DNA of 32,000 nucleotides from Candidatus Electrothrix sp. GW3-4. Lineage in GTDB: Bacteria; Desulfobacterota; Desulfobulbia; Desulfobulbales; Desulfobulbaceae. The stretch is taken from assembly GCF_037902255.1 (NCBI RefSeq), contig NZ_CP147990.1:2250001-2282000 (forward strand), in the 5' to 3' direction. Numbering within the stretch: the first letter of the stretch is position 1; the number at the start of each line of letters is the position of its first letter. Shown piece by piece: positions 6,050 through 27,400 of this stretch. A model generated the notes under the pieces. That model was given only the letters and a program-made list of their open reading frames with translations, searched no databases and was not told where the DNA came from. Made by a program: the position numbers and the translations under genes.

Positions 6050-7396
6050 ATGGATAAACAGAAGGTCAAAATTTTAATTGTAGACGACGAACAAGTCCAC
6101 AGGTACATGCTCTACTCCATGCTGACGGAATGGGGCTGGTCATGTCAGGAGGCGGATGATGGTGAGACAGCGGTAGAAGCAGTACGACAGGGACCTTTTG
6201 ATGTCATCCTTCTGGATGTCTGCATGGAACCAATCGATGGTTTAGAGGCTCTACGCCAGATACACGCCATTAATCCATCGATTCCTGTCGTTATGATGAC
6301 GGCCTACTCCTCAATAGATTCGGCTGTTGAGGCAATAAAACTCGGTGCCCATGATTACCTGACCAAGCCCATAGATTTTGAGCGACTTCGCCAAACCCTG
6401 GAAGTTGCTATGGGGCATCGTCAGCAACCGGACAAGACAGAGCTCTCTGAAAAACCCTTTGGCGAAGACGGGAGAATCATCGGCTCTTCAGCTCCGATGC
6501 AGGCCCTTTGGGAAATGATCGTCCAGGTTGCGCCCACAGAGGCCACAGTCCTGATCACTGGTGATTCAGGCACTGGAAAGGAGCTCGTCGCCTCTGCCCT
6601 CCATTATAAAAGTCAGCGAAGAAAGGGGCCCTTTATCAAGGTAAACTGTGCTGCTCTTTCTGAAACCCTCTTGGAATCCGAGCTCTTTGGCCATGAAAAA
6701 GGGGCGTTTACAGGGGCGGATCGGCGCCGCGAGGGCTGTTTTGTCCAGGCCCAGGAGGGCACGCTCTTTCTTGATGAAATAGGCGAAACAACCCCGGCCA
6801 TGCAGGCAAAACTCTTACGGGTCCTTCAGGAGCACGAACTCCAGCGAGTCGGTGGGCAAGAGGTCATTCAAGTTGATGTGCGTATTGTCACAGCCACCAA
6901 CCGGGACCTGGAAGCTGAGGTAAAGGCAGGTACTTTTCGGGAAGATCTTTATTACCGGCTCAATGTTGTGGCCCTGGATATGCCTTCGTTATGCGATCGT
7001 GACGGTGATATTCCTTTGCTCGCTGAGTATTTCCTGGCCAATTTTGCCAAAAGAAACAAGCGGGAGGTGCAGGGAATAACCCCAGAATGCATGGATATAC
7101 TGAATCGCTATCCCTGGCCTGGCAATGTCCGCGAACTGGAAAATGCTATCGAACGGGGTGTTATCCTCATGCGGGGAGAGTATCTTGATCTTGAGAGCCT
7201 GCCTATGGCTGTGCAAAACTGGGCAGGTATGCATCCGAAAAAGGAAGAAGAACAACCGTCCACCCTCAGAGAGGCAGAGCGAGTTCTCATCCTGAAAACC
7301 CTTGAGGAAACCAACGGAAATCGCAGTGAAGCAGCCCGCCGCTTACAGATTACGCGCAAGACCTTGCTCAATAAACTTAAAAGGTATGGGGTATAA
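6050..7396 (+). CDS. Sigma-54-dependent Fis-family response regulator (NtrC class)
   Basis: Receiver domain ILIVDDE..DVILLDVCMEPIDG. AAA+ domain with GDSGTGKE and GAFTGA motifs. C-terminal HTH NRSEAARRLQITRKTLLNKLKRYG. The start at ATG 6050 is uncertain. Confidence 0.9.
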   Translation: MDKQKVKILIVDDEQVHRYMLYSMLTEWGWSCQEADDGETAVEAVRQGPFDVILLDVCMEPIDGLEALRQIHAINPSIPVVMMTAYSSIDSAVEAIKLGAHDYLTKPIDFERLRQTLEVAMGHRQQPDKTELSEKPFGEDGRIIGSSAPMQALWEMIVQVAPTEATVLITGDSGTGKELVASALHYKSQRRKGPFIKVNCAALSETLLESELFGHEKGAFTGADRRREGCFVQAQEGTLFLDEIGETTPAMQAKLLRVLQEHELQRVGGQEVIQVDVRIVTATNRDLEAEVKAGTFREDLYYRLNVVALDMPSLCDRDGDIPLLAEYFLANFAKRNKREVQGITPECMDILNRYPWPGNVRELENAIERGVILMRGEYLDLESLPMAVQNWAGMHPKKEEEQPSTLREAERVLILKTLEETNGNRSEAARRLQITRKTLLNKLKRYGV

Positions 7397-7464
7397 AACC
7401 TGAAGAAGCGTCTTCCTCGATACGGCACAGCCTCTTCTCCCTCCCGTGGTTGCGGCCCAAGACT

Positions 7465-8223
7465 TCATGTCTCTCTCCTGATCCCTCTCTCCTCATAGAG
7501 AATCAGAAAAACCAGCAGCGCAATAAAAAGTCCTACATGGGCCGCAAGAAGTAAAGTAGCAGTAAAAAAAGAGGTGGCAAAGCCCCCTTTCTGGATTTTG
7601 AGATCATTACGTGCAAAAAAATTTTCCTGAAACTTCTTCTTATCGGCCTTCGTCGGTTCATATAGGGTGTAGGCATCTGATTCATTTTTAAACGGCAAGA
7701 CCACGCCATGCCGCTGGTAAATCAGTTGCGCTGCAATCCTTCTCTTATTGCCTGTCACGGCAGTCACCAAATATTCGGCCAATTCCGGCTGCATTCCTGT
7801 GCTGAGCTCATCGGATAGTTGCTGCTGTATGGCAAAGCTGCCACGCATTATCACCATTAAAAAAGAGACATTGACGATGAATATCCCAAGAAAGAACAAC
7901 GCCAGGTATTTGCTTTTCCCTCTGTTCGCCGCAACCTGCCAAAAACTGACCGGAAGAAAAACAGAGAGAAGTACTACCAGGGGAAATTGAATCATATCCT
8001 GTTTCAGGAACTCAGGAAAGAGCCTGTAACCAAACAGAAAGAAAAACCATATAAAAACTGTTATTCCAGGAAGTTTCTTCATATTCTTTAAGTAAACTGC
8101 GTGCAGGAGTAGAGGTTTTTCAGCCTGCCGTCTTAACGGGGCAGCCCAAGAAGGATGAAACGAGATAAAGCTTGCAGTGTACCCTTTCGGCGGCTGAACA
8201 GACAGCTTTTTTCTCAGCATCAC
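7465..8223 (-). CDS. Hypothetical integral membrane protein (start uncertain: GTG 8223, ATG 8220 or ATG 8082)
   Basis: Several hydrophobic segments (ITVFIWFFFLFGY, LVVLLSVFLPVSFW, LALFFLGIFIVNVSFLMVI, LLLAAHVGLFIALLVFLIL). Convergent with the response regulator gene. Confidence 0.5.
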   Translation of the reverse strand: MMLRKKLSVQPPKGYTASFISFHPSWAAPLRRQAEKPLLLHAVYLKNMKKLPGITVFIWFFFLFGYRLFPEFLKQDMIQFPLVVLLSVFLPVSFWQVAANRGKSKYLALFFLGIFIVNVSFLMVIMRGSFAIQQQLSDELSTGMQPELAEYLVTAVTGNKRRIAAQLIYQRHGVVLPFKNESDAYTLYEPTKADKKKFQENFFARNDLKIQKGGFATSFFTATLLLAAHVGLFIALLVFLILYEERGIRRET

Positions 8224-8405
8224 TCTCTGTCCCTAAAAAAGAGCGCTATAGCTGCTTGTTGCCTTTTTTCTATTGCCAGATCTCTAAGGATTTTATATAT
8301 ATTATAAGTAAAAAAAATTTTACCTTTTTTTATCCAGGTAGAATGCAGTTCGTCCGAAACTACGGGCAATGAGATAAACTTCACAGAACAAGGAGAGTGA
8401 GAACC

Positions 8406-9521
8406 ATGAAACTGAAAGTGTTGGCACAGGCTGCTGTTTTAGTCGTGCTGTCGGCGGGTGTCGCCTTTGCCGGAGGCAGAGCCTTCACCTGCGACGACTG
8501 CTCAGATGAATGTTTGGAAAATCCTTACAGCAAAGGGTGTCCGCCCGTTTGCAAGGATCCGGGATGTCAGGCATCCCAGACATCCTGCGATGACTGCTCA
8601 GATGAATGCAAAAAGAATCCCTATGGTGCGGATTGTCCAGAGATCTGTCGTGATGTAGCCTGTCAATCCTGCGAGGACTGTACCGACGAATGTAAGATCA
8701 ACCCCTATGGTGATGGCTGTCCAGATATATGCCGCGACATAAAATGCTACAGCTGTGACGACTGTTCTGTCGAGTGCATTGAAAATCCAGAAGGACAGGG
8801 ATGTCCTCCTGTATGTGACGAGCTGGGCTGCAATATCTGTGATAAATTCCCCACTGACTGCCCTGTCTCCTGTAAAGAAGGCTCCCCGGATCAGGAAAAC
8901 TGTCCGACTGAATGTCAGGATGTGCCGGAAGAGTGTCTGTCTGAGGATCCTAGTGGACTCAATGCAGAGATCACCTGTGACGACTGTCCGCCTGAGTGCG
9001 AAGACGACCCCTATGCAGAAGGGTGTCCGGCTGAATGCCAGGAGCTCAACTGTTATGGTGCTCCGGCAGGCCCGCTTCGTTTTGTCGGCGACCTCGGCTA
9101 TCTGCGCCTCTCAGATCCAGCGGATTACCTCTTTGCTCGCTTAGGCGTTGAGTACAGCCCCTTTACAGGTACATCTCTGGAGAACCTGTCTTTCCTGGCA
9201 ATGGCCGGTGCGGCTCCAAAGCTAGACGGCTCTGATGGAGACGATGCACTGTTGCTTGATGTCTTTGCCCAGTACAACTGGTCAGGAGCCTTTGATGGCT
9301 TTATTGGTCTTGGTTTCGGCGCTTGGATCACAGATAATGATAGCGACCTTGACTCTGATGACTCTGATCTCGATTTCCTGGCCAATATTGGTGCCCGTGT
9401 ATACGGAGACCCGGATGGTTTCAATATTTCCGTCTTCCTGGAGGCACGGAATGCGGTTGATGAGCTAAGCGACATGGATCAGTACGGACGATATGGTATC
9501 GGCCTGCGCTTTCAACGTTAA
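8406..9521 (+). CDS. Secreted protein with six 6-Cys modules fused to a C-terminal beta-barrel-like domain
   Basis: AGGAG lies 10 nt upstream of ATG 8406. Signal peptide MKLKVLAQAAVLVVLSAGVAFA. Six modules with pattern C-x2-C-x3-C-x8-C-x3-C-x4-C give 36 Cys (nt 8490-9053). The C-terminal 155 aa show alternating hydrophobic/Gly-Asp patterning and end in GIGLRFQR. Confidence 0.75.
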   Translation: MKLKVLAQAAVLVVLSAGVAFAGGRAFTCDDCSDECLENPYSKGCPPVCKDPGCQASQTSCDDCSDECKKNPYGADCPEICRDVACQSCEDCTDECKINPYGDGCPDICRDIKCYSCDDCSVECIENPEGQGCPPVCDELGCNICDKFPTDCPVSCKEGSPDQENCPTECQDVPEECLSEDPSGLNAEITCDDCPPECEDDPYAEGCPAECQELNCYGAPAGPLRFVGDLGYLRLSDPADYLFARLGVEYSPFTGTSLENLSFLAMAGAAPKLDGSDGDDALLLDVFAQYNWSGAFDGFIGLGFGAWITDNDSDLDSDDSDLDFLANIGARVYGDPDGFNISVFLEARNAVDELSDMDQYGRYGIGLRFQR

Positions 9522-9587
9522 AAACAGATATTTACACAATTTATCGCATGTAGATATATAATATAAGCGAAGAGTAACAGCTTGTGA

Positions 9588-9619
9588 GGGGCACAGGGTC
9601 ATCCTTGTGCCCTTTTTTT
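9588..9619 (+). terminator. Rho-independent terminator downstream of the Cys-rich protein gene
   Basis: GGGGCACAGGG-tcat-CCTTGTGCCC followed by TTTTTTT. Confidence 0.6.
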
Positions 9620-9706
9620 ATTACGCTCCGCAGCGTTTTTCCAATACCCCTTGTATAGCTCTGCTCGCCCCTGACCTGTTCCTGTCTCCCTAATTCCCCC
9701 TCCCTA

Positions 9707-9810
9707 GTACAGTCAGGCGCAAATTACCCTATTCTTTCTGGAGCCGCTTTCCCGTTCTTTACAAGGTAGTTTGCTGTGAAAAGTAGCGCAAGACTTACGC
9801 CGCACTGTAC
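9707..9810. mobile_element. 104-bp MITE derived from the IS630-family element at 13739-15124, in inverted orientation and flanked by TA
   Basis: The left end GTACAGTCAGGCGCAAATTACCCTATTCTTT matches the reverse complement of the IS right end GTACAGCGCGGCGCAAATAACCCTATGCTTT (26/31). The right end ...ACGCCGCACTGTAC matches the IS left IR. TA is present at 9705-9706 and 9811-9812. Confidence 0.65.
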
Positions 9811-10014
9811 TAGACTCTTCGCTCCAGAAAGCCGCGCTCAGACATGAGAGCATGCAAAAAACGTACAGAAAAAAACAGGGGAAATTCGCGCCGAATGCGC
9901 TTAATTTTTCTTACAGCTCAAATTTACTTGCAAGAGGGGGACTGGACTGCAAGAAGAGGCAAAAGGTGCTGAAGGGAAAGGCTTTGTCGGGCAGGGAGGA
10001 ATTGAAGAAGATAG

Positions 10015-10056
10015 AGGAGGGATAAAAACCAACACCGGTAACAGAATATCCCTCCT
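10015..10056 (-). terminator. Possible terminator hairpin downstream of the ferredoxin gene
   Basis: Perfect 10-bp inverted repeat AGGAGGGATA / TATCCCTCCT with a 22-nt loop. On the minus strand it is followed by a pyrimidine/T-rich CTATCTTCTTC, which is not a clean U-tract. Confidence 0.3.
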
Positions 10057-10121
10057 GAGAGTGGACAACGGCTCTACTGCAAGAGCAACGCCGTTGCCCC
10101 TCTCATCATCAACTGTGGTTC

Positions 10122-10307
10122 TTAAACCTCAGTAACGGTGATGGCATCTGCGTCACAAACCTCTACGCAGGTTTCACAACCCAGACATTCGTCTTCGTTG
10201 ACCGGATCAGCTTTTCCGTCAACGAGCTCGAAAACACCTGCCGGGCAGGATCCAACACACTCTTCACAACCTACACATTTATCTTTATCTACAACTACTT
10301 CAAACAT
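10122..10307 (-). CDS. 2x[4Fe-4S] ferredoxin (61 aa)
   Basis: Two cluster motifs, [12 protein letters not shown] and [17 protein letters not shown] Shine-Dalgarno sequence upstream. Confidence 0.9.
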
Positions 10308-10404
10308 TGTCCTTCTCCTTAGTAGCGGCCCTATAATGGACCCTTTTTATAAAAGTAACGTCACGATTAATTTTGTACAATATAACATGTACTGACTTTG
10401 GCAA

Positions 10405-10432
10405 AGATACCCTTAATATTTTTACTGTCAAT
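10405..10432 (-). promoter_or_regulatory. Candidate sigma-70 promoter for the ferredoxin gene
   Basis: On the minus strand: TTGACA, 16 bp spacer, TATCTT, within an AT-rich region about 95 nt upstream of the ATG. Confidence 0.3.
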
Positions 10433-10785
10433 ATTTTTTTTGCATGATCCGCTCAGTCAAATATTTCCTCATGCCTTACCAACATTCCTTGCGAGCAACA
10501 CAACGAAGTAACCAACAAACAATACAGGAAAAAAACAACATATCACACCTCTGCCTTTTCTCCTCCTTCCCAACGGCACATCAAGAATAAGACATATATT
10601 TAAGTGTACGTTCAGGTGTGCATTTCCCAATTAGATTAAAACACCTTTCGTTGAAGGATCAGCACTCTTCATTATCTACATTTTTCATCTACAAGGTTAA
10701 CCTATATCTTGACAAGATCTCCGCTTTATAGTAAACAAAGCTCACGGTGTTACAAAAAATAAAAAAATATTACCCACTATTCGTC

Positions 10786-11388
10786 ATGCATATTTCAGAA
10801 GGAATTCTTTCAGCACCGGTTTTGCTCAGCGGCGGAATAATTGCTGCGATAGGCACCTATATTGGGTTAAAAAAAATTGACCTCGAACAGGTCATGCCCG
10901 TTGCCCTCCTCTCTTCTGCCTTTTTTGTTGCTGGCCTGGTCCATGTTCCGCTCGGCCCCGGATCCGTGCATTTGATGCTGATCGGGCTCCTTGGGGTCAT
11001 GCTGGGGTGGGCCGCTTTTCCGGCTATCCTGATTGCTCTTTTTCTTCAGGCCCTGTTTTTTCAATTCGGCGGTTTTGCCGTTCTGGGCGTGAACACGGTC
11101 ACTATGGCTACTCCAGCCCTCTGCTGCTACTACCTGACTCGTTCTTGGATGAACAACCCTAAGACAAGACCTGCTGCCGCTTTTCTTGCTGGCTTCCTGG
11201 CTATTCTGCTGGCCTCGCTGCTGACCGCTTGCGCTCTCGCCCTGACAGATACCGGCTTCACAACTGCTGCCCAGCTCATTATCGCAGCCAATGTGCCAGT
11301 CATGATTATCGAAGGGAGCATCACCATGTTCACTGTCGGCTTCCTGGCCAAGGTCCAACCGGAAATTTTACACCTCAACTACGCATGA
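10786..11388 (+). CDS. cbiM: ECF-type Ni/Co transporter substrate-capture component (CbiM/NikM)
   Basis: N-terminal MHISEGIL (the metal-binding Met-His N-terminus is conserved in CbiM/NikM) and multiple TM helices. The ORF-track start at 10747 is a GTG that would bury this N-terminus. Confidence 0.85.
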   Translation: MHISEGILSAPVLLSGGIIAAIGTYIGLKKIDLEQVMPVALLSSAFFVAGLVHVPLGPGSVHLMLIGLLGVMLGWAAFPAILIALFLQALFFQFGGFAVLGVNTVTMATPALCCYYLTRSWMNNPKTRPAAAFLAGFLAILLASLLTACALALTDTGFTTAAQLIIAANVPVMIIEGSITMFTVGFLAKVQPEILHLNYA

Positions 11389-12011
11389 ACCGGTCTCGTA
11401 TCCTGACAGCACTCCTCTTTGCCGTATTGTTTTCGTTCTTCACGCTGCCAGCTGAAGCGCATAAGCTCAATGTCTTCTGTTGGGCTGGTGACACGGAGGT
11501 CTACGGAGAGGTATTTTTCAGCGGGGGGCGTAAGGCAAAAAATGTAGTGGTTCATGTCCAGGATGCCAAAACGCACACCCTCCTCCTCACAACCCGGACT
11601 GATGAGGAAGGAAAATTCCAATTCGTCCCGCCACAACAGGCCGTTCAACAAAAGCAGGGCCTCTTGATCACCGTGGAGACAGGTGATGGTCATCGCGGAG
11701 AATGGCCTCTGGCAGCAGACGAATACCTCTTGACAGAATCTGTTCCGCCTCCGACCGAGCAGCTGCCCATAAAAGAATCAGCAACAGCATCTGTCGATAT
11801 GGAGACTGTACGGGTTATTGTGCAGGTTATTGTGCGGCAAGAACTGGAGCGGGAACTGCTCCCCATTAAACGCGAACTGGCTGAAGCACGAGAAAAAAAG
11901 ATCAGCTCTCGGGATATACTTGGCGGGATAGGCTGCATTATCGGACTGGCAGGCCTGCTTGCCTGGTTGCAAGCAAATAAAAAAAAGAAGAAGCGTTCGA
12001 CAGATGGGTAA
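11385..12011 (+). CDS. NikL-like accessory component (signal/TM segment, prealbumin-like domain, C-terminal TM)
   Basis: ATGA overlap with the cbiM stop. Signal sequence LLFAVLFSFFTLPAEA|HK. The stretch VYGEVFFSGG..VVVHVQD..TRTDEEGKFQF looks like a CarboxypepD_reg-type domain. C-terminal TM ILGGIGCIIGLAGLLAWL followed by KKKKKR. Confidence 0.5.
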   Translation: MNRSRILTALLFAVLFSFFTLPAEAHKLNVFCWAGDTEVYGEVFFSGGRKAKNVVVHVQDAKTHTLLLTTRTDEEGKFQFVPPQQAVQQKQGLLITVETGDGHRGEWPLAADEYLLTESVPPPTEQLPIKESATASVDMETVRVIVQVIVRQELERELLPIKRELAEAREKKISSRDILGGIGCIIGLAGLLAWLQANKKKKKRSTDG

Positions 12012-12095
12012 AGGATCCATTGTCAAGAAAAGAGGATCTGAGTAAATTTTGATCCCAAAAAACAATACCTGATGTACAAAAAAGGAGTACGAACG

Positions 12096-12866
12096 ATGAA
12101 GATCAAAGCTGTTGCTGCAACTGCACTTTTTCTCGCCTGCATGACAGGAGAGGCCCTTGCCCACTTCGGGATGGTTATCCCTTCGGACAATATCCTGGAG
12201 CCCAAGAAAAAAAGTGTAAAATTGGACCTTTCCTTCTCACATCCCTTTGAGATAATCGGTATGGATCTGGTCAAACCCAAGGCCTTCTTCATGGTCGCAG
12301 GCGAGCAAAAGACCGACCTGCTGCCAGCACTTAAGGAAGCTAAGGTCATGGATCATGCTGCCTGGACAACCGAGGTGCCCATTAAACGCCCTGGCGTATA
12401 CACCTTTGTCATGGAGCCAACCCCGTACTGGGAACCGGCTGAGGATGTATCTATCATCCATTACACCAAAACCCTGATTGCTGCCTTTGGTGATGATCAG
12501 GGCTGGGATGAGCCCGTTGGTATTGCAACAGAGATCGTGCCACTGACCCGTCCTTTTGGCAACTATGCTGGCAACAGCTTTTCCGGGCAGGTTCTGCTCA
12601 ACGGCAAACCGGTTCCCGGGGCAGAGGTTGAAATAGAACTGTACAATAAAGATAAAAAATTCAGCGCCCCCAGCGACTACCACGTCACCCAGGTGGTCAA
12701 GGCTGACGAGAACGGTGTCTTTACCTTTGCCTGCCCCCAGGCGGGCTGGTGGGGATTTGCCGCGCTGAATGAGGCTGACTACACCATTAAGGATCCTGAA
12801 GGAAACGACAAAGGCGTTGAACTTGGTGCGGTTCTCTGGACCTACCTGGACGAATACAAAAAATAA
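12096..12866 (+). CDS. Periplasmic DUF4198 / NikK-like Ni/Co-binding component
   Basis: AGGAG lies 7 nt upstream of ATG 12096. Signal peptide MKIKAVAATALFLACMTGEALA|HFG. The mature-protein pattern is typical of COG5266/DUF4198 proteins found in nik/cbi ECF loci. Confidence 0.7.
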   Translation: MKIKAVAATALFLACMTGEALAHFGMVIPSDNILEPKKKSVKLDLSFSHPFEIIGMDLVKPKAFFMVAGEQKTDLLPALKEAKVMDHAAWTTEVPIKRPGVYTFVMEPTPYWEPAEDVSIIHYTKTLIAAFGDDQGWDEPVGIATEIVPLTRPFGNYAGNSFSGQVLLNGKPVPGAEVEIELYNKDKKFSAPSDYHVTQVVKADENGVFTFACPQAGWWGFAALNEADYTIKDPEGNDKGVELGAVLWTYLDEYKK

Positions 12867-12914
12867 CATTCCTCCCTTCCTTCCGGGGAGGGATAAACAC
12901 AAGATGGAATTTGG

Positions 12915-12940
12915 CCGGGCGACTCCAAGGAGTCACCCGG
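12915..12940 (+). other. Strong intercistronic hairpin between the nikK-like and cbiQ genes
   Basis: CCGGGCGACTCC-aa-GGAGTCACCCGG: 12-bp arms with one mismatch and no following U-tract. Confidence 0.5.
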
Positions 12941-12995
12941 TACTTTCATATAAAAACCTGTTGAACCTGCCAGTGCAGTTATGGTATGAGACCGC

Positions 12996-13739
12996 ATGAC
13001 CTTTGAACAGTTCAGTGACGGCACTTCATTTCTGCACCGGGCAGACCCTCGGGGCAAACTGATCAGCACTGGCGTGCTCAGCCTGATCATCGCCCTGAGT
13101 CAACGCTGGAACACAGCTTTTCTCGGCCTCCTGCTGGCATTTTTTCTTGTACTTGCAGCCCGCCTGTCATGGACAAAAATCGCTCGTCGCCTCCTGATCG
13201 TTAACAGCTTTAATCTCCTGCTCTGCCTTATTCTGCCCCTGACCTACACAGCCAACAACACCCTTTCGCTTCTCGGGATCACCCTCAGCAGCACCGGTTT
13301 GTTCCTCGCCCTGCTGATCACCGTTAAATCCAATGCTGTTATCCTGCTCTTTATCAGCCTACTGGCCACCTCCACGGCGGCCCAGCTCGGTCATGCCCTC
13401 CAGAAACTGGGCCTGTCACCGAAGCTCTGCCTGCTGCTGCTCTTTTCCTATCGTTATATAGCGCTTATTCAGCAGGAGTTGTTCCGCTTACAACGGGCAG
13501 CCCGCCTGCGTTGCTTTCAGCCAAAGACTAACCTGCATACGTATAGAACCTATAGTTACATGCTGGGCATGATGCTGGTCCGGAGCTGGAACCGAGCCGC
13601 ACGGGTGCAGCAGGCGATGGTATTACGTGGATTTTCCGGAGAATTTCATAATTTGCACGATTCCGGCAAGATGCAGAAAAAAGACCTGTTGCTATTGGTG
13701 ATTCTCCTGCTGGCCGGTTTCGGGTTGATGGTACTCTAG
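12996..13739 (+). CDS. cbiQ: ECF transporter transmembrane (T) component CbiQ/NikQ
   Basis: N-terminal FLHRADPRGKL, a hydrophobic body, and a conserved ARxxR-type loop (AARLRCF). The stop codon TAG (13737-13739) spans the IS630 insertion junction. Confidence 0.8.
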   Translation: MTFEQFSDGTSFLHRADPRGKLISTGVLSLIIALSQRWNTAFLGLLLAFFLVLAARLSWTKIARRLLIVNSFNLLLCLILPLTYTANNTLSLLGITLSSTGLFLALLITVKSNAVILLFISLLATSTAAQLGHALQKLGLSPKLCLLLLFSYRYIALIQQELFRLQRAARLRCFQPKTNLHTYRTYSYMLGMMLVRSWNRAARVQQAMVLRGFSGEFHNLHDSGKMQKKDLLLLVILLLAGFGLMVL

Positions 13740-15124
13740 TACAGCTCAGCGTAAATTAAACACTGCTTTTTTGCACAATAATATTGTATCATGAATCCTT
13801 TTTGATTGCGTATATTGACAACAATCTTGCAACACATGGATTCGAAAATGCCTACACCCAAATCGCCATCAATTGCTGTTTCCGAACAACAGAAAGAAAT
13901 TTTGTCAAAAATAGCTCGACAATCAACAGCTGATTTTCGTGAGGTAAGTCGGGCTTCTTTAATATTGGAGATTGAGAAAGGAAAACCGAACTCAAAGATT
14001 GCAAAAGTCATGAGTTGCAGTATCGACAAGGTTAAACATTGGAGATACAAGTGGCTGGCCAACCAAGATACTTTAATGCAAATAGAGACTGATCCCCAAA
14101 ATGCCAATCAGTTGGAAAAAAGTATTCGAGAAGTTTTAAAAGATAATCCGCGTCCGGGAGCACCAGTAACTTATTCTTCAGAACAATATTGTCAGATTTT
14201 AGCAGTTGCACTGGAGCATCCCGAAGAAAGCGGTCGTCCAATTTCTCAATGGAGCAGTAGGGAATTGGCGGATGAATGCAATAAGCGTGGGATAACCTCT
14301 GGAATTTCGGACCGTCAAGTGGGCCGATTTTTAAAAAGAAACCGATGTGAAACCTCATCATAGTCGGTATTGGCTCAATCCCAATCATGACAATGAAGAA
14401 CTGTTTGTTTTAGAAGTGAAAGATGTCTGTGAAACATACCACGAAGCTCCCCGAAAGGCGGTAATAAACGGCAGGCGAACCATCAGTATTGATGAAAATA
14501 CCGGAATACAGGCTCTTGAGAGGAAAAATCCGACAAAAAAGATAGAGCCGGGAAAGCCGGAGCGGATTGAGTTTGAGTACATCAGGCACGGAACACTCTC
14601 GCTCATTGCAAACTTTGACGTAGTGACCGGTGAAGTCGTCTCTCCCAGCATAGGAGACACTCGGGACGAACATGATTTTTGCGAACATATTCGAAGCCTT
14701 ATATTAAGCGATCCGGAAACTCGGGAGTGGGTCTTTGTGGCTGATCAGCTCAATACTCATAAGTCGGAATCACTTGTCAAGTTGGTCAGTGAATTATGCG
14801 AAATAAAAGATAATTTAGGCGTCAAAGGGAAACAAGGCATTTTGAAATCAATGAAAAGCAGAGCCGAATTTCTCAGGAAGAAAGACCATGCAATTCGCTT
14901 TGTTTATACCCCAAAACACTGTTCATGGCTCAATCAAGTAGAAATTTGGTTTGGTATTCTTACTAAGAAAATCATTAAAAGAGGTAATTTTACATCAAAA
15001 AAAGATCTCAGGAGTAAATTGCTCGACTTTATTGATTACTTTAATGCGACAATGGCAAAACCATACAAATGGACATTTAATGGGTTGCCGTTAAAAGCAT
15101 AGGGTTATTTGCGCCGCGCTGTAC
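13739..15124 (+). mobile_element. IS630-family insertion sequence (1386 bp) with TA target-site duplication
   Basis: Terminal IRs GTACAGCTCAGCGTAAAT (left) and ATTTGCGCCGCGCTGTAC (right) match at 15/18. TA is present at 13737-13738 and 15125-15126. An internal DDE transposase is present. Confidence 0.85.
13848..15102 (+). pseudogene. IS630-family DDE transposase split into two frames at TTTTTAAAAAG (14328-14338)
   Basis: The N-terminal HTH part (..EQQKEILSKIARQ..) ends at 14363. The DDE part (KPHHSRYWLNP..ADQLNTHKS..PKHCSWLNQVEIWF) continues in the +1 frame. Removing one A from the A5 run gives FLKETDVKPHHSRYWL, a typical contiguous junction. Confidence 0.8.
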
Positions 15125-21122: not shown

Positions 21123-22652
21123 ATGATCACCGGAGAACTTAAATCCAAGGTGGACAGCATCTGGGACACCATGTGGTCTGGCGGCATATCCAACCCGCTC
21201 ACAGTTATTGAGCAGCTGACCTACCTGCTCTTTATCAAGCGGCTCGACGAGCTGCACATCTTGGCTGAGCACAAGGCCAACCGCCTGGATAAGCCCATTG
21301 AACAACCGATCTTCAGCAAGGATCAGGAGCAACTACGTTGGTCCCGTTTTAAGGAAACAGCGCCTGAGCAGATGTTCCTTACGGTCAAGGATGAAGTTTT
21401 TCCCTTTATCAAGACCCTGGGCAACGGAGAGACCAGCGCAGAGGAGAAAGAAAACCGTCAGGAAGAATCGCCAAGTCACCTCGTTCAGGTTGCTGAAAGC
21501 GATGTTGCGTATAAACATGCGTATCAAGAGGAGAGCGTGGCAGAGGAGGACAAGACAGAGAAAGAGGTCTGGAAAAAAGACTCCACAGACTCCACCTATG
21601 CCCATCATATGCGGGATGCCCTGTTCATGATCCCCACCCCACGGGTGCTGGCCAATGTGGTGGATCAGCTGGCAGGCATTGAGATGGCAGATACCGACAC
21701 CAAGGGTGATCTTTACGAGTACATGCTGGGCAAGATTGCCTCGGCAGGCCAGAACGGCCAGTTCCGCACCCCGCGCCACATCATCCGCCTGATGGTGGAC
21801 ATGTGCGCGCCCACGCCCAGGGATCTGATCTGCGATCCGGCCTGCGGTACAGCGGGTTTCCTGATTGCGGCCTCAGAATATCTCCAGCAGCACCACAGCA
21901 GCGAGATCTATCAGAGCGAGGCGAGCCGCCGCCGCTTTAATCAGCTGGATGAGGAGAAGTACTCCCTGCTCCTGGCCAATCCGCCCTTTGCAGGCAGTCT
22001 GGATTACGAGTCCATTGCCAAGGATCTGCAACAGGTGGTCAAGACCAAGAAGACCGAGCTGCTCTTTCTGGCCCTGTTTCTCCGTCTGCTGCGGACCGGC
22101 GGTCGAGCTGCGGTCATTGTCCCGGACGGGGTTCTGTTCGGATCAAGCAAGGCCCATAAGACGTTGCGCAAGATCTTGGTGGAGGAGCAGAAGCTGGACG
22201 CGATCATCTCCATGCCCTCGGGGGTGTTCAAGCCCTATGCCGGGGTGTCCACGACCATCCTCTTTTTCACCAAGACCAACTCTGGGGGCACGGATCAGGT
22301 TTGGTTTTACGACATGCGCTCGGATGGCTTTTCTTTGGATGATAAACGGAGCCCGCAACCGGACAAGAGCAATCTGCCGGATATCCTCGCTCGCTGGCAG
22401 GATTTTCAGGCAGGGTGTACGGCTGAGGCAAAACGCAAGCGTACTGAGCAGAGCTTTCTGGTGCCCAAGGAAGAGATTGCTGGTAATGATTATGATCTGT
22501 CCATCAACCGTTATAAGGAAGTGGTCTACGAGGCCGTGGAATATGATCCGCCGGGGGTTATTCTGGGGCGGTTGGCTGCGCTGGAGCAGGAGATTGCGGC
22601 TGGGCGGGTTGCGCTGGAGGGGTTGTTGGGAGAAAAGGCTATACACGCGTAG
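21123..22652 (+). CDS. hsdM: Type I restriction-modification system methyltransferase subunit HsdM (atypical: acidic insertion, and motif II/III segment apparently missing)
   Basis: HsdM_N-type N-terminus (LKSKVDSIWDTMWSGGISNPLTVIEQLTYLLFIKRLD). GQFRTPRHII, motif I DPACGTAGFL, motif IV NPPFAG, GRAAVIVPDGVLFGS, and C-terminal YDLSINRYKE. Confidence 0.88.
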   Translation: MITGELKSKVDSIWDTMWSGGISNPLTVIEQLTYLLFIKRLDELHILAEHKANRLDKPIEQPIFSKDQEQLRWSRFKETAPEQMFLTVKDEVFPFIKTLGNGETSAEEKENRQEESPSHLVQVAESDVAYKHAYQEESVAEEDKTEKEVWKKDSTDSTYAHHMRDALFMIPTPRVLANVVDQLAGIEMADTDTKGDLYEYMLGKIASAGQNGQFRTPRHIIRLMVDMCAPTPRDLICDPACGTAGFLIAASEYLQQHHSSEIYQSEASRRRFNQLDEEKYSLLLANPPFAGSLDYESIAKDLQQVVKTKKTELLFLALFLRLLRTGGRAAVIVPDGVLFGSSKAHKTLRKILVEEQKLDAIISMPSGVFKPYAGVSTTILFFTKTNSGGTDQVWFYDMRSDGFSLDDKRSPQPDKSNLPDILARWQDFQAGCTAEAKRKRTEQSFLVPKEEIAGNDYDLSINRYKEVVYEAVEYDPPGVILGRLAALEQEIAAGRVALEGLLGEKAIHA

Positions 22653-22673
22653 CCAATTCATCGGGTTCATCTG

Positions 22674-22704
22674 GTTCCCAAGCTCCGGCTTGGGAACTGT
22701 TTTA
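22674..22704 (+). terminator. Hairpin plus short T-tract after hsdM (terminator-like)
   Basis: GTTCCCAAGC-tccg-GCTTGGGAAC is a perfect 10-bp stem, followed by TGTTTTA. Confidence 0.5.
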
Positions 22705-22788
22705 CCTGAAGCTCTGCTTCATGTCTCGAAGTTGGAGTTTCTGTATTAAGGGTACCCAAGCAGAGCTTGGGCACCAGGACGAAAAGGA

Positions 22789-23020
22789 GACGTTTGTTTC
22801 TTGCGAGAGGTCTTTCTTTTGTAAAGAGAGGCTCTGCTCTTCTTGCGAGAGGCTCTACTCTTCTTGCGAGAGGTTCTACTCTTTTAAAGAGAGGTGTCGC
22901 TCTTTTTTCGAGAAGCTGCTCGTTTGATAAAAGCGGTTCTTCCTCTCAAGAGAGGAGAGGTTCTTGTTTAACGAGGAGCCGTGCTGTTGTTACGAGGAAG
23001 CTGTACTGCAAAGAATGTAT
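22789..23020. repeat. Degenerate tandem array, 11 units with a 21-bp period, consensus GCTCTACTCTTCTTGCGAGAG
   Basis: Read directly. Unit boundaries fall at 22789, 22810, 22831, 22852, 22873, 22894, 22915, 22936, 22960, 22979 and 23000. Units at 22831 and 22852 are 20/21 identical. The array degrades toward the 3' side. Confidence 0.9.
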
Positions 23021-23066
23021 CGCCTGTTGCGGACAAGACAGGGGCATTGAGCTTTTCGCTCTTGCT

Positions 23067-23168
23067 GCCCAGCGTTAAAACGCTGGGCTATTGGCGGGCT
23101 GTCCCTCCGGGACGCTTTTACCGCCCCGGAGGGGCCGAACGATAATAGCCCAATGTTTTAACATTGGG
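23067..23168. repeat. REPIN-like nested imperfect palindrome (two inverted ~45-bp arms, each carrying its own hairpin)
   Basis: Hairpin A is GCCCAGCG-ttaaaa-CGCTGGGC (23067-23088). The outer stem pairs GGGCTATT (23085-23092) with AATAGCCC (23144-23151). The inner stem pairs CCCTCCGGG (23103-23111) with CCCGGAGGG (23125-23133). Hairpin B is CCCAATGT-ttta-ACATTGGG (23149-23168). Confidence 0.8.
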
Positions 23169-23183
23169 TGGAATCTGGCGCGG

Positions 23184-23207
23184 AAAAACTCTACGCACTG
23201 CGTAGAG
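23184..23207 (-). terminator. Minus-strand terminator-like hairpin
   Basis: On the minus strand: CTCTACGC-agt-GCGTAGAG followed by TTTTT (A5 at 23184-23188 on the plus strand). No obvious minus-strand gene feeds into it. Confidence 0.35.
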
Positions 23208-23255
23208 AATTGAACTGCCTCTTGATGTGTTAAGGGTTGAGGAAGGAGAAGAAGG

Positions 23256-24437
23256 GTGAAGGTTGAAATAGTGGGTGAAGGTGGTGGTAGCATTAGAGAT
23301 GCTGAGATGACGTGGGTTGATAAAAAACTTGGCGAGCTTGCAAAAATTTGCACCGGCAAACTCGACGCGAACGCAAGCTCGGAGAATGGCAAATATCCTT
23401 TTTTTACATGCGCACGACAACCTCTGCGAATCAACAGTTACAGCTATGACGGTGAATGCGTACTTGTCGCAGGAAATGGAGATTTAAACGTCAAATATTA
23501 TGAAGGTAAATTCGATGCGTATCAGCGAACCTACATTATTAAGGTCCGCCCGGAGTTAAGAGATTCGCTTTCTCTTGGTTACGTATATCATTTTCTTGAA
23601 ACATATCTTGAGACACTCAGAAAGCAAAGCATTGGTGGGATCATAAAATACATCAAGCTTGGAAATTTAACTAAAGCTCCAATCCCCCTCCCGCCCATAT
23701 CCGAGCAAAAACGCATTGCAAAAATCCTGAATGCAGCAGACGCCCTACGGGCCAAACGCCGAGAAGCCCTCGCCCAACTCGACACCCTCCTGCAATCCAC
23801 CTTCCTGAATATGTTCGGCGATCCGGTCGCCAATCCGATGGGGTGGAAAATGGGGCGTTTGGCAGATATTGTCGAGCGTCTCGATGGTGGCAAAAATGTT
23901 GCCCAATCTGAAACGAAAACTGACTATCGCGTCCTTAAGGTCAGTGCAGTGACATACGGAGTATATCGACCCGAAGAAAGCAAATACCTTCCCGCTGATT
24001 TCAACGTTCCAGAATCCTACATCGTTAAAAGTGGCGATCTGTTGATCAGTCGAGCAAATACCACCGAGCTGATAGGGGCGACGGCTTATGTCTGGGAAAC
24101 ACCGGAAAGAATCGCACTTCCCGATAAAATCTGGAAGTTCATCTGGAAAAATGATGCCCAAATCGAACCGTTGTTTATTTATCATCTGTCTCAACATATC
24201 GAGTTCCGCCGCATCCTTGCTAGCCGTGCCTCGGGAACTAGCGGTTCCATGAAGAATATCGCGAAATCAAAGCTTCTTAGCTTGCCAGTTCCCCTCCCAC
24301 CCCTCCCTCTCCAACACCGCTTCGCCACCATAGTAAAATCCGTAGAACAACAAAAGTCCCGGATGAAAACTCACCTGACCGAACTGGACACCCTGTTCGC
24401 AGCCCTCCAACAACGAGCCTTTAACGGAGACCTCTAA
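23256..24437 (+). CDS. hsdS: Type I restriction-modification system specificity subunit HsdS (two TRDs)
   Basis: Central conserved region PLPPISEQKRIAKILNAADALRAKRREALAQLDTLLQSTFLNMFGDP. C-terminal conserved region LPVPLPPLPLQHRFATIVKSVEQQKSRM..LDTLFAALQQRAFNGDL. GTG 23256 has AAGGAG 7 nt upstream; the alternative start ATG 23307 (MTWVDKKLGEL) looks more like a typical HsdS N-terminus. Confidence 0.85.
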   Translation: MKVEIVGEGGGSIRDAEMTWVDKKLGELAKICTGKLDANASSENGKYPFFTCARQPLRINSYSYDGECVLVAGNGDLNVKYYEGKFDAYQRTYIIKVRPELRDSLSLGYVYHFLETYLETLRKQSIGGIIKYIKLGNLTKAPIPLPPISEQKRIAKILNAADALRAKRREALAQLDTLLQSTFLNMFGDPVANPMGWKMGRLADIVERLDGGKNVAQSETKTDYRVLKVSAVTYGVYRPEESKYLPADFNVPESYIVKSGDLLISRANTTELIGATAYVWETPERIALPDKIWKFIWKNDAQIEPLFIYHLSQHIEFRRILASRASGTSGSMKNIAKSKLLSLPVPLPPLPLQHRFATIVKSVEQQKSRMKTHLTELDTLFAALQQRAFNGDL

Positions 24438-24443
24438 TCCACC

Positions 24444-27400
24444 ATGAGCAACTTCGCCTTCCTGCCCACCGAGTTCCGCACCATCGCCGAATCCGCAATC
24501 AAGGCGGAAGGCCACATCATGGGCGACCCGCGTGCTGCCTGCTTCCATGCCCGCTTCACCCTGGAAGCCATTGTCCACTGGCTCTACCGCCACGACAGCA
24601 GCCTCCACCAACCCTATGCCCGCAACCTGGGTGCCCTGCTTTATGAAGCCACCTTTCAGGATCTCCTGCCCCAGCCCGTGTTGCACAAGGCCCAGCTGAT
24701 CCACAAGCTCGGTAATGCAGCTGTCCATAACACCCGGTCCGTGCCCAGCAGCGACGCGCTTCAGGCGGTCAAAGACCTCCACCATTTCTGCCACTGGCTG
24801 GTGCGGACCTACAGTCCTTCTGCTGTCCTGAAAACATCGGGTTGGCGTGATGATCTGGTGTTGCCAGCCCTGGACAGCAAAGCCGTGGTGCCGCGCAAGG
24901 AGCTGGAAACCCTGGAGAGCCGGTTAGCGGCCCAGAACGAAAAGAGCCTCAAGCAACAGCAGGAACGGGATGTCCTAGATGCGGAAATTCAGGCCCTGCG
25001 GGAACAGCTCACAGCTCTCCGGGTCCAGTCTGAGCAGCAGATTGATCCCCATGACTACTCTGAGGCCGAGACCCGGCACGCCCTGATCGACGTGGACCTG
25101 CACCGGGCTGGCTGGCCCCTGGCTGATCCCCAGGATCGGGAATACAAGGTCAGCAATATGCCCACTTCCACCAGCACCAGCACCGGTATCGGTATCGGCA
25201 TTGGCTATGTCGATTATGTGCTCTGGGGTGATGACGGCAGGCCCCTGGCCGTGGTGGAGGCGAAAAAGAGCACCGCAGATCCCCAAGCAGGTCAGCAGCA
25301 GGCCAAGCTCTATGCGGACTGCCTGGAGCAGATGCATAGTCAACGCCCGCTCATCTTCTACACCAACGGCTACAGCACTTGGCTCTGGGACGATACCAGC
25401 TATCCGCCCCGGCAGGTGGCTGGTTTCTACTCCAAGGACGAGCTCACCCGCCTGATTCTTCGCCGCAACCGTTGCACACCCCTGAAGCAGCTCAAGGTCA
25501 AGGAGGCAATCGCGGGCCGCTATTACCAAATCCGGGCCATCCGTAGTATTGCGGACCAATTTACCGAGGCCCGCCGCAAGGCCCTGCTGGTCATGGCCAC
25601 GGGAACCGGTAAGACCCGAACCGCTATCGCCTTGGTGGATATCCTCCAACGGGCCGGGTGGGTGAAGCGGGCCCTGTTTCTTGCGGATCGGATCTCCCTG
25701 GTCAGGCAGGCCTGCAATGCCTTTAAGGAGCATCTGCCCGAATCCAGCCCGGTGAATCTGGTTACGGAAAAGGGCACTGAGGGCCGGGTGGCGGTCTGCA
25801 CTTACCCCACCATGATGGGTCTGATAAATAAAACCATGAACGAGGACAAGGGGACAGCGGCCCGCCAGTCTTGCCAGTCCTGTTTTGGAGTGGGCCATTT
25901 TGACCTGATCATCATTGACGAGGCCCACCGCTCCGTGTACCGGAAATACGGGGCCATCTTCCGTTATTTCGATGCCCTGCTGGTCGGTCTGACCGCCACC
26001 CCCCGTGAAGAAGTGGACAAGAACACCTATGACCTCTTTGAGCTGGAACAGGGCGTGCCCACCGATGCCTATGAGCTGGCCGAGGGCGTTAAGGACGGCT
26101 TCCTGGTGCCGCCCCGGGTGGCCCAGGTGGATATGCGCTTTCCCGGCCAGGGTATTGATTATGATCTGCTCAGTGCCGAGGAACAGGCCCAATGGGAAGA
26201 ACTGGACTGGGGTGATGATGGGGAGCCGGATCGCTTCCCGGACAAGGTCAATGCTGCGGCCATCAATAACTGGCTCTTTAACCAAGACACAGTGGACAAG
26301 GTGCTCAAGTATCTTATGGAGCATGGACATCGGGTGGAAGGCGGGGACCGGCTGGCCAAGACCATCATCTTTGCCCGTAACCACCAGCACGCTGCCTTTA
26401 TTGAGGAACGTTTTAATGCCAATTATCGAAAGTATGCTGGCCATTTTGCTCGGGTGATTGATAATACCATCAAGCATGCCCAGAACCTGATTGAGGAATT
26501 TGAGCAACAGGATAAGGCACCCCATATCGCCATCTCCGTGGACATGCTGGACACCGGCATTGATGTGCCTGCGGTGGCCAATCTGGTCTTTTTTAAACCG
26601 GTCTTTTCCAAGATCAAATTCTGGCAGATGATCGGACGCGGCACCCGACCCTGCCCGGATCTCTTTGGTCCTGGTGAGGATAAGCAGGACTTTCGGGTCT
26701 TTGACTTCTGCTTTAATTTTGATTTTTTTCAGGAAAACCCAGAGGGCATCAATGCCGGGGATACTGCCCCGCTGGGTACTCGCCTTTTTCAGGCACGGGT
26801 TCAGTTGCTCAGTCATATTCAGTCCCGCCCTGAAACCGATGCAGATGCTCAGCTGGCAACGAGCCTGACAGATGGCCTGCACCGGGAGGTCAAGGCCATG
26901 CACCGGGATAACTTCATTGTCCGCATGCATAGGCAGGCAGTGGAGCAGTTTCAGGAGCGCACAGCCTGGGACCGGCTCAGCGAGAGCGATTGTATGACCC
27001 TGCAACGGGAGGTGGCAGGCCTGCCCAGCGAGCTTGCCAGCGACAATATCCGGTCCCGGCTCTTTGACCTCACGGCCCTGCGTATGCAGCTGGCCCTGAT
27101 CGAGGGCGGCAGCTTTGAGCGTCAGCGCAGGCGGGTCATGGAGATTGCCCAGCTGCTGGAAGAGAAACGGGCTGTCCCGGCAGTAGCGGTCCAGCTGGCC
27201 TATCTTGCTAGGGTCCAGGAAGACGGCTTCTGGCAAGGGATGACTCTGGCCGAGCTGGAGGATCTCCGCCTTCGCTTCCGGGAGCTGGTGCCCTTGCTGG
27301 ACAAGCAGGAGCGCAATTTGGTGTACACGGATTTTCAGGACGAGGTTCTGGGGGTGCGGGAAGAGGAGCCGGTCTATATCCCCAGGATGACCGGGGCCCA

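Follow-up and report, generated by a model that had tools for sequence, protein, structure and literature searches.

The subject of this report is a single gene in a 32,000-nucleotide stretch of DNA from Candidatus Electrothrix sp. GW3-4 (contig NZ_CP147990.1, positions 2,250,001 to 2,282,000), hereafter called the window. The gene, at window positions 8406-9521 on the plus strand, encodes a secreted protein in which six modules of six cysteines each are joined to a small beta-barrel of the outer membrane. The gene occurs in cable bacteria only and is under strong purifying selection. We propose, tentatively and with a probability of roughly 40%, that the protein is anchored in the outer membrane and, from the periplasmic side, tethers or cross-links the cable-specific envelope and its nickel-sulfur (Ni-S) fibres. 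Cable bacteria conduct over centimetres, and the protein side of their fibres is still without an identified member. We rank the finding high because it supplies a concrete, testable candidate for this missing protein side of conduction. The features of the gene are as follows.

8390-8395, plus strand: Shine-Dalgarno sequence AAGGAG, 10 nt before the ATG at 8406 (read from the sequence)
8406-9521, plus strand: open reading frame of the cysteine-rich protein, intact, 371 codons encoding 371 residues
8406-8471, plus strand: Sec-type signal peptide MKLKVLAQAAVLVVLSAGVAFA, residues 1-22, probable cleavage after AFA (by inspection)
8490-8567, plus strand: cysteine module 1, residues 29-54, canonical pattern C-x2-C-x3-C-x8-C-x3-C-x4-C (regular expression), cysteine columns at least 90% conserved
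8586-8663, plus strand: cysteine module 2, residues 61-86, canonical, short helices in the AlphaFold2 model with a predicted local distance difference test (pLDDT) score of 83-88
8670-8747, plus strand: cysteine module 3, residues 89-114, canonical, contains CPDICRDIKC, the most conserved stretch
8754-8831, plus strand: cysteine module 4, residues 117-142, canonical
8838-8936, plus strand: cysteine module 5, residues 145-177, divergent and symmetric, C-x6-C-x3-C-x9-C-x3-C-x6-C
8976-9053, plus strand: cysteine module 6, residues 191-216, canonical, adjoins the barrel
9069-9518, plus strand: 8-stranded outer-membrane beta-barrel, residues 222-371, about 150 residues, no cysteine and no histidine (AlphaFold2 and Foldseek)
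9111-9113, 9231-9245, 9333-9368 and 9456-9488, plus strand: acidic barrel loops, residues 236-238, 276-280, 310-321 and 351-361
9586-9615, plus strand: intrinsic terminator, a 13-bp stem with 7 GC pairs followed by a T-run, 65 nt past the stop codon

The cysteine modules form a new domain

All 36 cysteines of the protein fall within residues 29-216. An earlier reading, made from the sequence alone, had described a secreted protein with six 6-Cys modules joined to a small barrel, and the sequence, the AlphaFold2 model and the Foldseek searches bear this description out. The canonical pattern recurs exactly in five of the six modules (regular expression). As that sequence-only reading had it, four canonical modules are followed by a divergent one and then by a sixth that is canonical again, and the peptides that it quoted are correct. 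Modules 2 to 5 keep to its 28-residue period, whereas the step from module 1 to module 2 measures 32 residues.

Within the modules, the cysteine spacing is nearly mirror-symmetric about a central loop: gaps of 2 and 3 residues precede the loop and gaps of 3 and 4 follow it in the canonical modules, and the corresponding values are 6 and 3, then 3 and 6, in the divergent one. The central four cysteines thus read as a twin C-x3-C in all six modules, with successive gaps of x3, x8 and x3 (x3, x9 and x3 in the divergent module). The half-module spacing is fixed, while the loop ranges from x6 to x9 across modules and orthologues. In the AlphaFold2 model, each module consists of short helical turns that flank an NPYGxG-type loop; modules 1-5 have pLDDT values of 75-91, and module 6 has lower ones. 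The mirror symmetry is compatible with two antiparallel half-sites that would contribute three cysteines apiece.

The composition of the region is extreme. Cysteine makes up 18.8% of the residues, aspartate plus glutamate 25% and proline 11%, and the net charge is -38. Histidine, methionine and tryptophan are missing, and tyrosine is conserved. No gap of x0 or x1 occurs between cysteines, i.e., the region has neither CC nor C-x-C. At two module junctions, C86-C96 (8661-8693) and C114-C124 (8745-8777), the cysteines of adjoining modules fall into the arrangement C-x2-C-x2-C-x3-C, which is the spacing of a ferredoxin cluster without the following proline; a CP dipeptide occurs later in each module. 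The cysteines may be metal-thiolate ligands, disulfides (three per module) or reactive thiols.

No Pfam or NCBIfam family matched the whole protein at an E-value of 10, and none of either collection, the Pfam models for metallothionein, Zn_clus and zf-Tim10_DDP included, matched any of 15 cysteine regions. Neither the protein nor a profile of either domain matched any PDB sequence above chance level, and Foldseek, given a model of the cysteine region alone, returned 0 matches in the PDB at an E-value of 10. The sequence-only reading could place the module in no family that it knew, and had named a clear match to a known disulfide-rich repeat family as the outcome that would count against it; no such match was found. 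The cysteine module is a new domain without detectable relatives.

The C-terminal domain is an eight-stranded barrel

AlphaFold2, run on the alignment of orthologues, gives eight long beta-strands of 9-15 residues each between residues 224 and 370, with pLDDT values mostly of 85-96. The model supports the barrel-like C-terminal domain proposed from the sequence, though its length is closer to 150 residues than to the 155 or so first given. When this domain was compared with the PDB by Foldseek, the top eight matches were all 8-stranded outer-membrane barrels, comprising PagL, OmpA, OprF, OmpW, NspA and OmpX, with E-values of 4e-5 to 9e-4 and target-normalised TM-scores of 0.45-0.64. Autotransporter barrels matched weakly (target TM-scores of 0.23-0.29). 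The strands alternate between a hydrophobic face and a polar, glycine-rich face, and invariant arginine, glutamate and aspartate residues appear on the polar, interior side; such alternation is what a small transmembrane barrel would be expected to show. The peptide VYGDPDGFNISVFLEAR is an example from this domain.

Curated outer-membrane protein families (Pfam OMP_b-brl, OmpA_membrane, OmpW and PagL, and those of NCBIfam) matched neither the whole protein at an E-value of 10 nor the C-terminal domain at an E-value of 1, and a profile of the barrel found nothing among PDB sequences. One orthologue is named "Outer membrane protein beta-barrel domain-containing" in UniRef. The structural class of the barrel is known, and the barrel itself is a new member of it with a divergent sequence. 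Because it lacks histidine, and with it the catalytic His-Ser pair, we ruled out that it is a PagL-type lipid A deacylase, the enzyme that gave the top Foldseek match. The protein of the window ends in GLRFQR; among its orthologues the last residue is Y, H, L, Q, R, F or M, and the complete paralogues described below nearly all end in RF, with one in QF.

Outer-membrane barrels with an even number of strands have both termini on the periplasmic side of the membrane. We infer from this that the N-terminal cysteine array lies directly under the outer membrane, in the periplasm, where the fibres run. At the opposite end of the modelled barrel, all four loops (SDP, SDGDD, DNDSDLDSDDSD and VDELSDMDQ) are acidic, and their conservation extends to the paralogues. 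Loops presumed to be extracellular are rarely so conserved, and for this reason we suspect that these may constitute a cation-binding face.

The gene, its start and its export signal

The position of the AAGGAG sequence supports the ATG at 8406, rather than the GTG at 8397, as the start codon. The signal peptide that follows is succeeded by GG and is kept, by inspection, in orthologues and paralogues; AlphaFold2 assigns pLDDT values below 50 to residues 1-24, the region that contains it. Inspection of the signal peptide revealed no lipobox, and none of the 23 orthologue signal peptides has a twin-arginine (RR) motif.

Since a strong intrinsic terminator follows the stop codon, the gene looks monocistronic. 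A gene for a sigma-54 response regulator nearby prompted a scan for sigma-54 promoters, which found no site upstream of the gene; matches in the window as a whole were at the level of chance. No Rfam RNA or riboswitch, such as a cobalamin element or a NiCo element upstream of nikM, was detected within 7300-11000. We also considered whether the module array could be an artefact of assembly or of tandem repetition. The array has no tandem repeat at the DNA level, and the GC content of the gene is native. We thus rejected this explanation and regard the array as old.

Distribution and conservation

The survey of phylogenetic distribution that had been suggested along with the sequence-only reading returned homologues from cable bacteria or from metagenomes. 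A word-indexed search of 5.8 billion proteins yielded 64 homologues. All of those with an organism name belong to Candidatus Electrothrix, Candidatus Electronema or early "Desulfobulbus sp." bins of cable bacteria, and the others are metagenome proteins. Two peptide signatures of the cysteine modules, for which the CPDICRDIKC stretch supplied the pattern, were used to scan 185,579 species-representative genomes (GTDB). The scan located 19 loci, and all 19 come from cable bacteria or from Desulfobulbaceae metagenome-assembled genomes with cable-type synteny. A HMMER profile of the cysteine region, searched exhaustively against 1.84 billion representative proteins, found three: two orthologues and P0078, a marginal paralogue with a single cysteine module.

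Among 23 full-length orthologues (57-90% identity), conservation of the cysteine columns in modules 1-5 is complete or reaches at least 90%, and all six cysteines of the divergent module 5 are invariant; the cysteine pattern is thus no accident. Module 6 is dispensable or duplicated: it is missing in some orthologues, and others have extra modules, such that the number of modules ranges from 5 to 8 and the number of cysteines from 30 to 49. The single module of P0078 and that of P0028, both paralogues, are of this sixth type. A given module resembles the one at the same position in the other genus more than it resembles its neighbours in the same protein, and the array therefore predates the split between Electrothrix and Electronema. 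Residues other than cysteine are also conserved in a position-specific manner in each module. The ratio of nonsynonymous to synonymous substitution rates (dN/dS) is about 0.05 in both the cysteine region and the barrel, an approximate value because dS is near saturation.

A family of barrel proteins with exchangeable middles

Paralogues in the same organisms have the signal peptide (pattern MKLKVL...LS...A) and the barrel (about 52% identity) in common with the window protein; their middles differ. Most carry an N-terminal domain of about 130 residues that is absent from the window protein. Between this domain and the barrel stand PGPERIVEK-type repeats, a short glycine linker, an alanine/proline linker, a PKD domain or cysteine modules. 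The last are found in P0028, in P0078 and in a tandem paralogue of Electronema sp. PJ (locus L019). Searches with the barrel and with the N-terminal domain of the paralogues showed that both are confined to cable bacteria save for a few metagenome proteins. The gene contexts of paralogues in closed genomes were uninformative.

The family thus looks like a set of barrel-anchored periplasmic tethers with exchangeable middles, of which the window protein would be the member without the distal domain and with expanded cysteine modules. The loss of the one and the expansion of the other point to the cysteine array as the business end of this protein.

Two further observations were made on the paralogues. 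In P0032, P0038, P0040 and P0044 (e.g., L027:8001-9236), 8 to about 25 copies of (V)PGPERIVEK separate the N-terminal domain from the barrel. The repeat resembles those of alveolins or articulins (the NCBI name is "IMCp domain-containing"), and the wide differences in copy number between strains suggest a periplasmic ruler or an element of a membrane skeleton. In addition, the tandem paralogue of Electronema sp. PJ (L019:8473-9777, plus strand; 434 residues) lies directly upstream of the orthologue and consists of the N-terminal domain, divergent cysteine modules and the barrel. A similar tandem arrangement is present at L020 and L022, which were checked for an upstream barrel only.

A possible tether for nickel-sulfur fibres

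The core of the periplasmic fibres of cable bacteria is a nickel bis(dithiolene) framework that contains more than 95% of the cellular nickel, and Ni(ett) oligomers have been modelled with their terminal sulfurs S-S bonded to cysteine residues, with no protein named (PMC13534509). Abundant protein disulfide bridges were proposed to explain the high sulfur content of the fibre sheath and its resistance to sodium dodecyl sulfate and ethylenediaminetetraacetic acid (SDS/EDTA) (PMC8238962). Comparative genomics by homology, a type of search that a new motif would escape, as its authors noted, produced no periplasmic nickel-binding or sulfur-related candidate for the fibres; the sole periplasmic nickel-binding candidate known is a homologue of NikA (PMC11976967). 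In the literature that we searched, a cysteine-rich protein of cable bacteria is not mentioned, and nothing relevant was found on Dsb machinery or fibre proteomics. The role in envelope metal binding or redox chemistry that the sequence-only reading had entertained becomes more specific in this setting, because the host is a cable bacterium and its periplasm houses Ni-S fibres that lack an identified protein.

In the arrangement that we propose, the C-terminal 150 residues would anchor the protein in the outer membrane as an 8-stranded barrel. The N-terminal 190 residues would hang beneath that membrane, in the compartment of the conductive Ni-S fibres, as a strongly acidic chain of six small helical modules, in each of which the six cysteines would hold two short helical halves together. 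Some of the thiols or disulfides may bond covalently, as S-S or S-metal, with the fibre sheath or with the termini of nickel-dithiolene ribbons, and such links would fasten the fibres to the ridges of the outer membrane. The candidate is restricted to cable bacteria, conserved, predicted to lie below the outer membrane and, in Electrothrix, adjacent to nik genes for nickel import; one in five residues of its cysteine region is a cysteine. A bolder version of the proposal makes the protein a component of conduction proper, whose 18 cysteine pairs use S-S or Ni-S bonds to cap, nucleate or covalently anchor nickel-dithiolene nanoribbons, which they also fasten to the outer-membrane ridges. We consider this version rather unlikely. 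If it were true, the protein would be the first to be tied to the Ni-S fibres, and its modules a new domain that binds a metal-organic framework.

Several points weigh against the tether. Spectroscopy gives dithiolene, not cysteine, as the nickel ligands (PMC13534509), which leaves the cysteines no more than a capping or anchoring role at the ribbons. The net charge of -38 is unlike that of known thiolate-cluster proteins. In P0028 and the L019 paralogue, the cysteine modules replace what is a mere spacer between the N-terminal domain and the barrel, a position that fits a passive stalk. The final residue of the barrel is an arginine, where an aromatic residue is usual. In loci of the Electronema type the gene is never near nik, and even in Electrothrix the two are not co-transcribed, as an opposite-strand ferredoxin gene and the strong terminator intervene. 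Finally, many cable-specific proteins must exist, and restriction to this lineage alone is no tie to the fibres.

The alternative that fares best against these data is a passive stalk stapled by three disulfides per module, which would act as a rigid spacer, a ruler or an element of the envelope wall and would contact neither metal nor fibre. Six cysteines per module, with fixed half-module spacing around a loop of variable length, are well suited to such a structure, and the twin C-x3-C in a helix-loop-helix (as judged from the AlphaFold2 secondary structure) resembles known disulfide hairpins. Cysteine-rich repeats exported by Sec are usually disulfide-bonded, the number of modules varies, and the modules of P0028 and the L019 paralogue stand where other paralogues have inert linkers. 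However, the window protein has no distal domain to space out; the cysteine array is its only functional part. The sulfidic pore water would be hostile to 18 exposed disulfides, and the conservation of residues other than cysteine in each module, together with a dN/dS equal to that of the barrel, exceeds the needs of a plain spacer. On balance, we find the passive stalk somewhat doubtful. Even if the protein were a mere disulfide-stapled strut, it would represent a new cysteine-module domain and a family of barrel-anchored tethers relevant to the ridged envelope of cable bacteria.

Gene neighbourhood and the remaining alternatives

The neighbours of the cysteine-rich gene, in the window and at Electronema-type loci, are listed here.

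7465-8079, minus strand: membrane protein of 204 residues without a family match, the divergent upstream neighbour, conserved in Electrothrix only
10122-10307, minus strand: 2x[4Fe-4S] ferredoxin, between the cysteine-rich gene and nik, matched by 14 Fer4 models
10747-13739, plus strand: nikM-nikL-nikK-nikQ, nickel/cobalt importer of the energy-coupling factor type (Pfam CbiM, DUF4198 and CbiQ; NCBIfam NikL)
L001:9084-9722 and L004:3368-4003, both minus strand, plus L012, L013, L014, L019, L020 and L022: SdhC_b558-family partners at Electronema-type loci

The sequence-only reading had drawn attention to the ferredoxin and to the proximity of the nik locus. The ferredoxin gene is there, and nikM (Pfam CbiM) begins at 10747, 1226 nt past the stop codon of the cysteine-rich gene. 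This adjacency is found in all eight Electrothrix-type loci that reach far enough downstream (the window, L002, L006-L009, L011 and L016), the distant YB6 and gigas included; L024 ends inside the gene and was left out of the count. The order downstream in these loci is the cysteine-rich gene, the ferredoxin gene on the minus strand, nikMLKQ and, where covered, PFOR, except that gigas has nikL and nikK only. Most Electrothrix-type loci, YB6 and gigas excepted, also keep the upstream sigma-54 response regulator and the minus-strand membrane protein, the latter with 60-72% identity. A neighbourhood drawn with the labels "hyp." and "fd", and left undiscussed, in PMC11247825 is the Electrothrix locus described here. 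No nikO gene for an ATPase adjoins the nikM-nikL-nikK-nikQ cluster. The connection with nik that the sequence-only reading had suggested is weakened: a component of a nikMLKQ(O) uptake operon was ruled out by the terminator, the opposite-strand gene and the absence of the adjacency in Electronema. The link to the nickel transporter is genus-specific synteny without an operon, and it is weak evidence.

These facts bear most directly on the idea that the protein is a periplasmic sponge or chaperone for nickel or another soft metal, in which thiolates and carboxylates capture Ni2+ below the outer membrane and either buffer it or deliver it to NikMLKQ or the fibres under assembly. The six cysteines of a module would suffice for a binuclear M2(Cys)6 site, and both the composition (19% cysteine and 25% aspartate plus glutamate) and the consistent adjacency in Electrothrix would agree with this role. 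So would the exceptional nickel demand of an organism with so much of its nickel in fibres (PMC13534509) and, the NikA homologue apart, no known periplasmic protein to bind it (PMC11976967). Yet the gene lies outside the nik transcription unit and has lost the adjacency in every Electronema-type locus. The region has no histidine, C-x-C or CC and no match to metallothionein or Zn_clus in Pfam, and a protein fixed in a membrane makes a poor shuttle. We judge the sponge quite unlikely.

Eight Electronema-type loci pair the gene, in divergent orientation, with an orphan dihaem cytochrome b of the SdhC_b558 family (TIGR02046; score 115 bits, cutoff 96). This cytochrome has neither SdhA nor SdhB encoded beside it and could be a putative quinol-linked partner. 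The possibility of a neighbour conserved across both genera was rejected, as the Electrothrix membrane protein and the Electronema SdhC-like protein are unrelated. The cytochrome pairing would suit a thiol/disulfide or persulfide/polysulfide redox module, in which the 18 cysteine pairs relay electrons or sulfur among sulfide chemistry, quinol-linked proteins and the fibres, in the very compartment where electrons derived from sulfide must reach those fibres (PMC13047784). We nevertheless hold this to be very unlikely: the cytochrome b is absent from the neighbourhood in Electrothrix and in E. aureum GS, the protein has neither a thioredoxin-like fold nor a CPxC active-site motif, and two-electron thiol chemistry is ill-matched to fast one-electron conduction.

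Highly improbable, in our estimation, is a surface-exposed passenger, with the cysteine array outside the cell as an adhesin or as a contact for minerals or metals. The array does precede a C-terminal barrel, as passengers do in autotransporters, and cable bacteria perform extracellular electron transfer. However, known passenger-exporting barrels have at least 12 strands. A barrel of eight strands in 150 residues, with no linker helix predicted inside it, is too small, and autotransport, or type V secretion in general, was ruled out on these grounds.

The leaning of the sequence-only reading toward iron-sulfur (Fe-S) ligation was not upheld. A protein exported by Sec is unfolded as it crosses the membrane, and no cluster assembled in the cytoplasm can travel with it. 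An envelope protein whose cysteines ligate [4Fe-4S] or a similar cluster, as the junction spacing and the later CP dipeptides might suggest, can practically be dismissed, because no orthologue among the 23 has a Tat motif and no Fer4 model matches the protein at an E-value of 10, while the adjacent ferredoxin matches 14; moreover, no proline follows the fourth cysteine, AlphaFold2 gives helical hairpins instead of a ferredoxin fold, and Raman spectra of the fibres show no Fe-based cofactors (PMC13534509).

Other features of the window were recorded. An insertion sequence (an HTH_32 open reading frame and a DDE_3 transposase, 13806-15102) sits between nikQ and a gene for a HAD hydrolase; E. aestuarii and E. 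aarhusensis lack it at the corresponding position. Two further features are unrelated to the cysteine-rich gene: a CsgG/FlgO-like protein (635-1603) and a type I restriction-modification system (21123-27881), complete with HsdM, HsdS and HsdR.

Comparison with known systems

Metallothioneins and Zn2Cys6 clusters resemble the modules in their very high cysteine density; a module has six cysteines in about 28 residues, in what would be two half-sites of three. The cysteine region differs from these systems in being acidic rather than lysine-rich, in containing tyrosine, in being secreted, in avoiding C-x-C and CC, and in matching no Pfam model of that kind. The small Tim proteins, the plant alpha-hairpinins and the CHCH proteins share with the modules a twin C-x3-C in a helix-loop-helix, a likeness at the level of the motif only. 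In the small Tims, the twin C-x3-C either binds zinc or forms two inter-helix disulfides, and the same ambiguity would apply to the modules described here. In distinction from all three groups, these modules have an additional outer pair of cysteines, occur in a tandem array of six, would reside in a bacterial periplasm, do not match zf-Tim10_DDP and have no homology to these groups that could be detected.

The chlamydial proteins OmcA and OmcB, together with MOMP, are cysteine-rich proteins on the periplasmic side of the outer membrane, to which they are attached; disulfide cross-links turn them into a detergent-resistant shell. That shell parallels the SDS/EDTA-resistant fibre sheath with its proposed disulfide bridges (PMC8238962). 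The window protein differs from OmcA and OmcB in its cysteine pattern and in having a barrel of its own as an anchor, and shows no kinship with them in sequence or fold; cross-linking is only proposed in its case.

The closest structural comparison is with the 8-stranded outer-membrane barrels, i.e., OmpA, OmpX, OmpW, NspA, PagL, PagP and the N-terminal domain of OprF. The barrel of the window protein is like these in its size of about 150 residues, its eight amphipathic antiparallel strands and its charged interior. It departs from the class in belonging to none of its sequence families, in the conservation of its acidic loops and in ending with arginine instead of phenylalanine. Whereas the periplasmic domain of OmpA is C-terminal to the barrel, that of the window protein is N-terminal to it. 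The result is a new variant of this architecture, in which the periplasmic array precedes its 8-stranded barrel and the family as a whole has middles that can be swapped.

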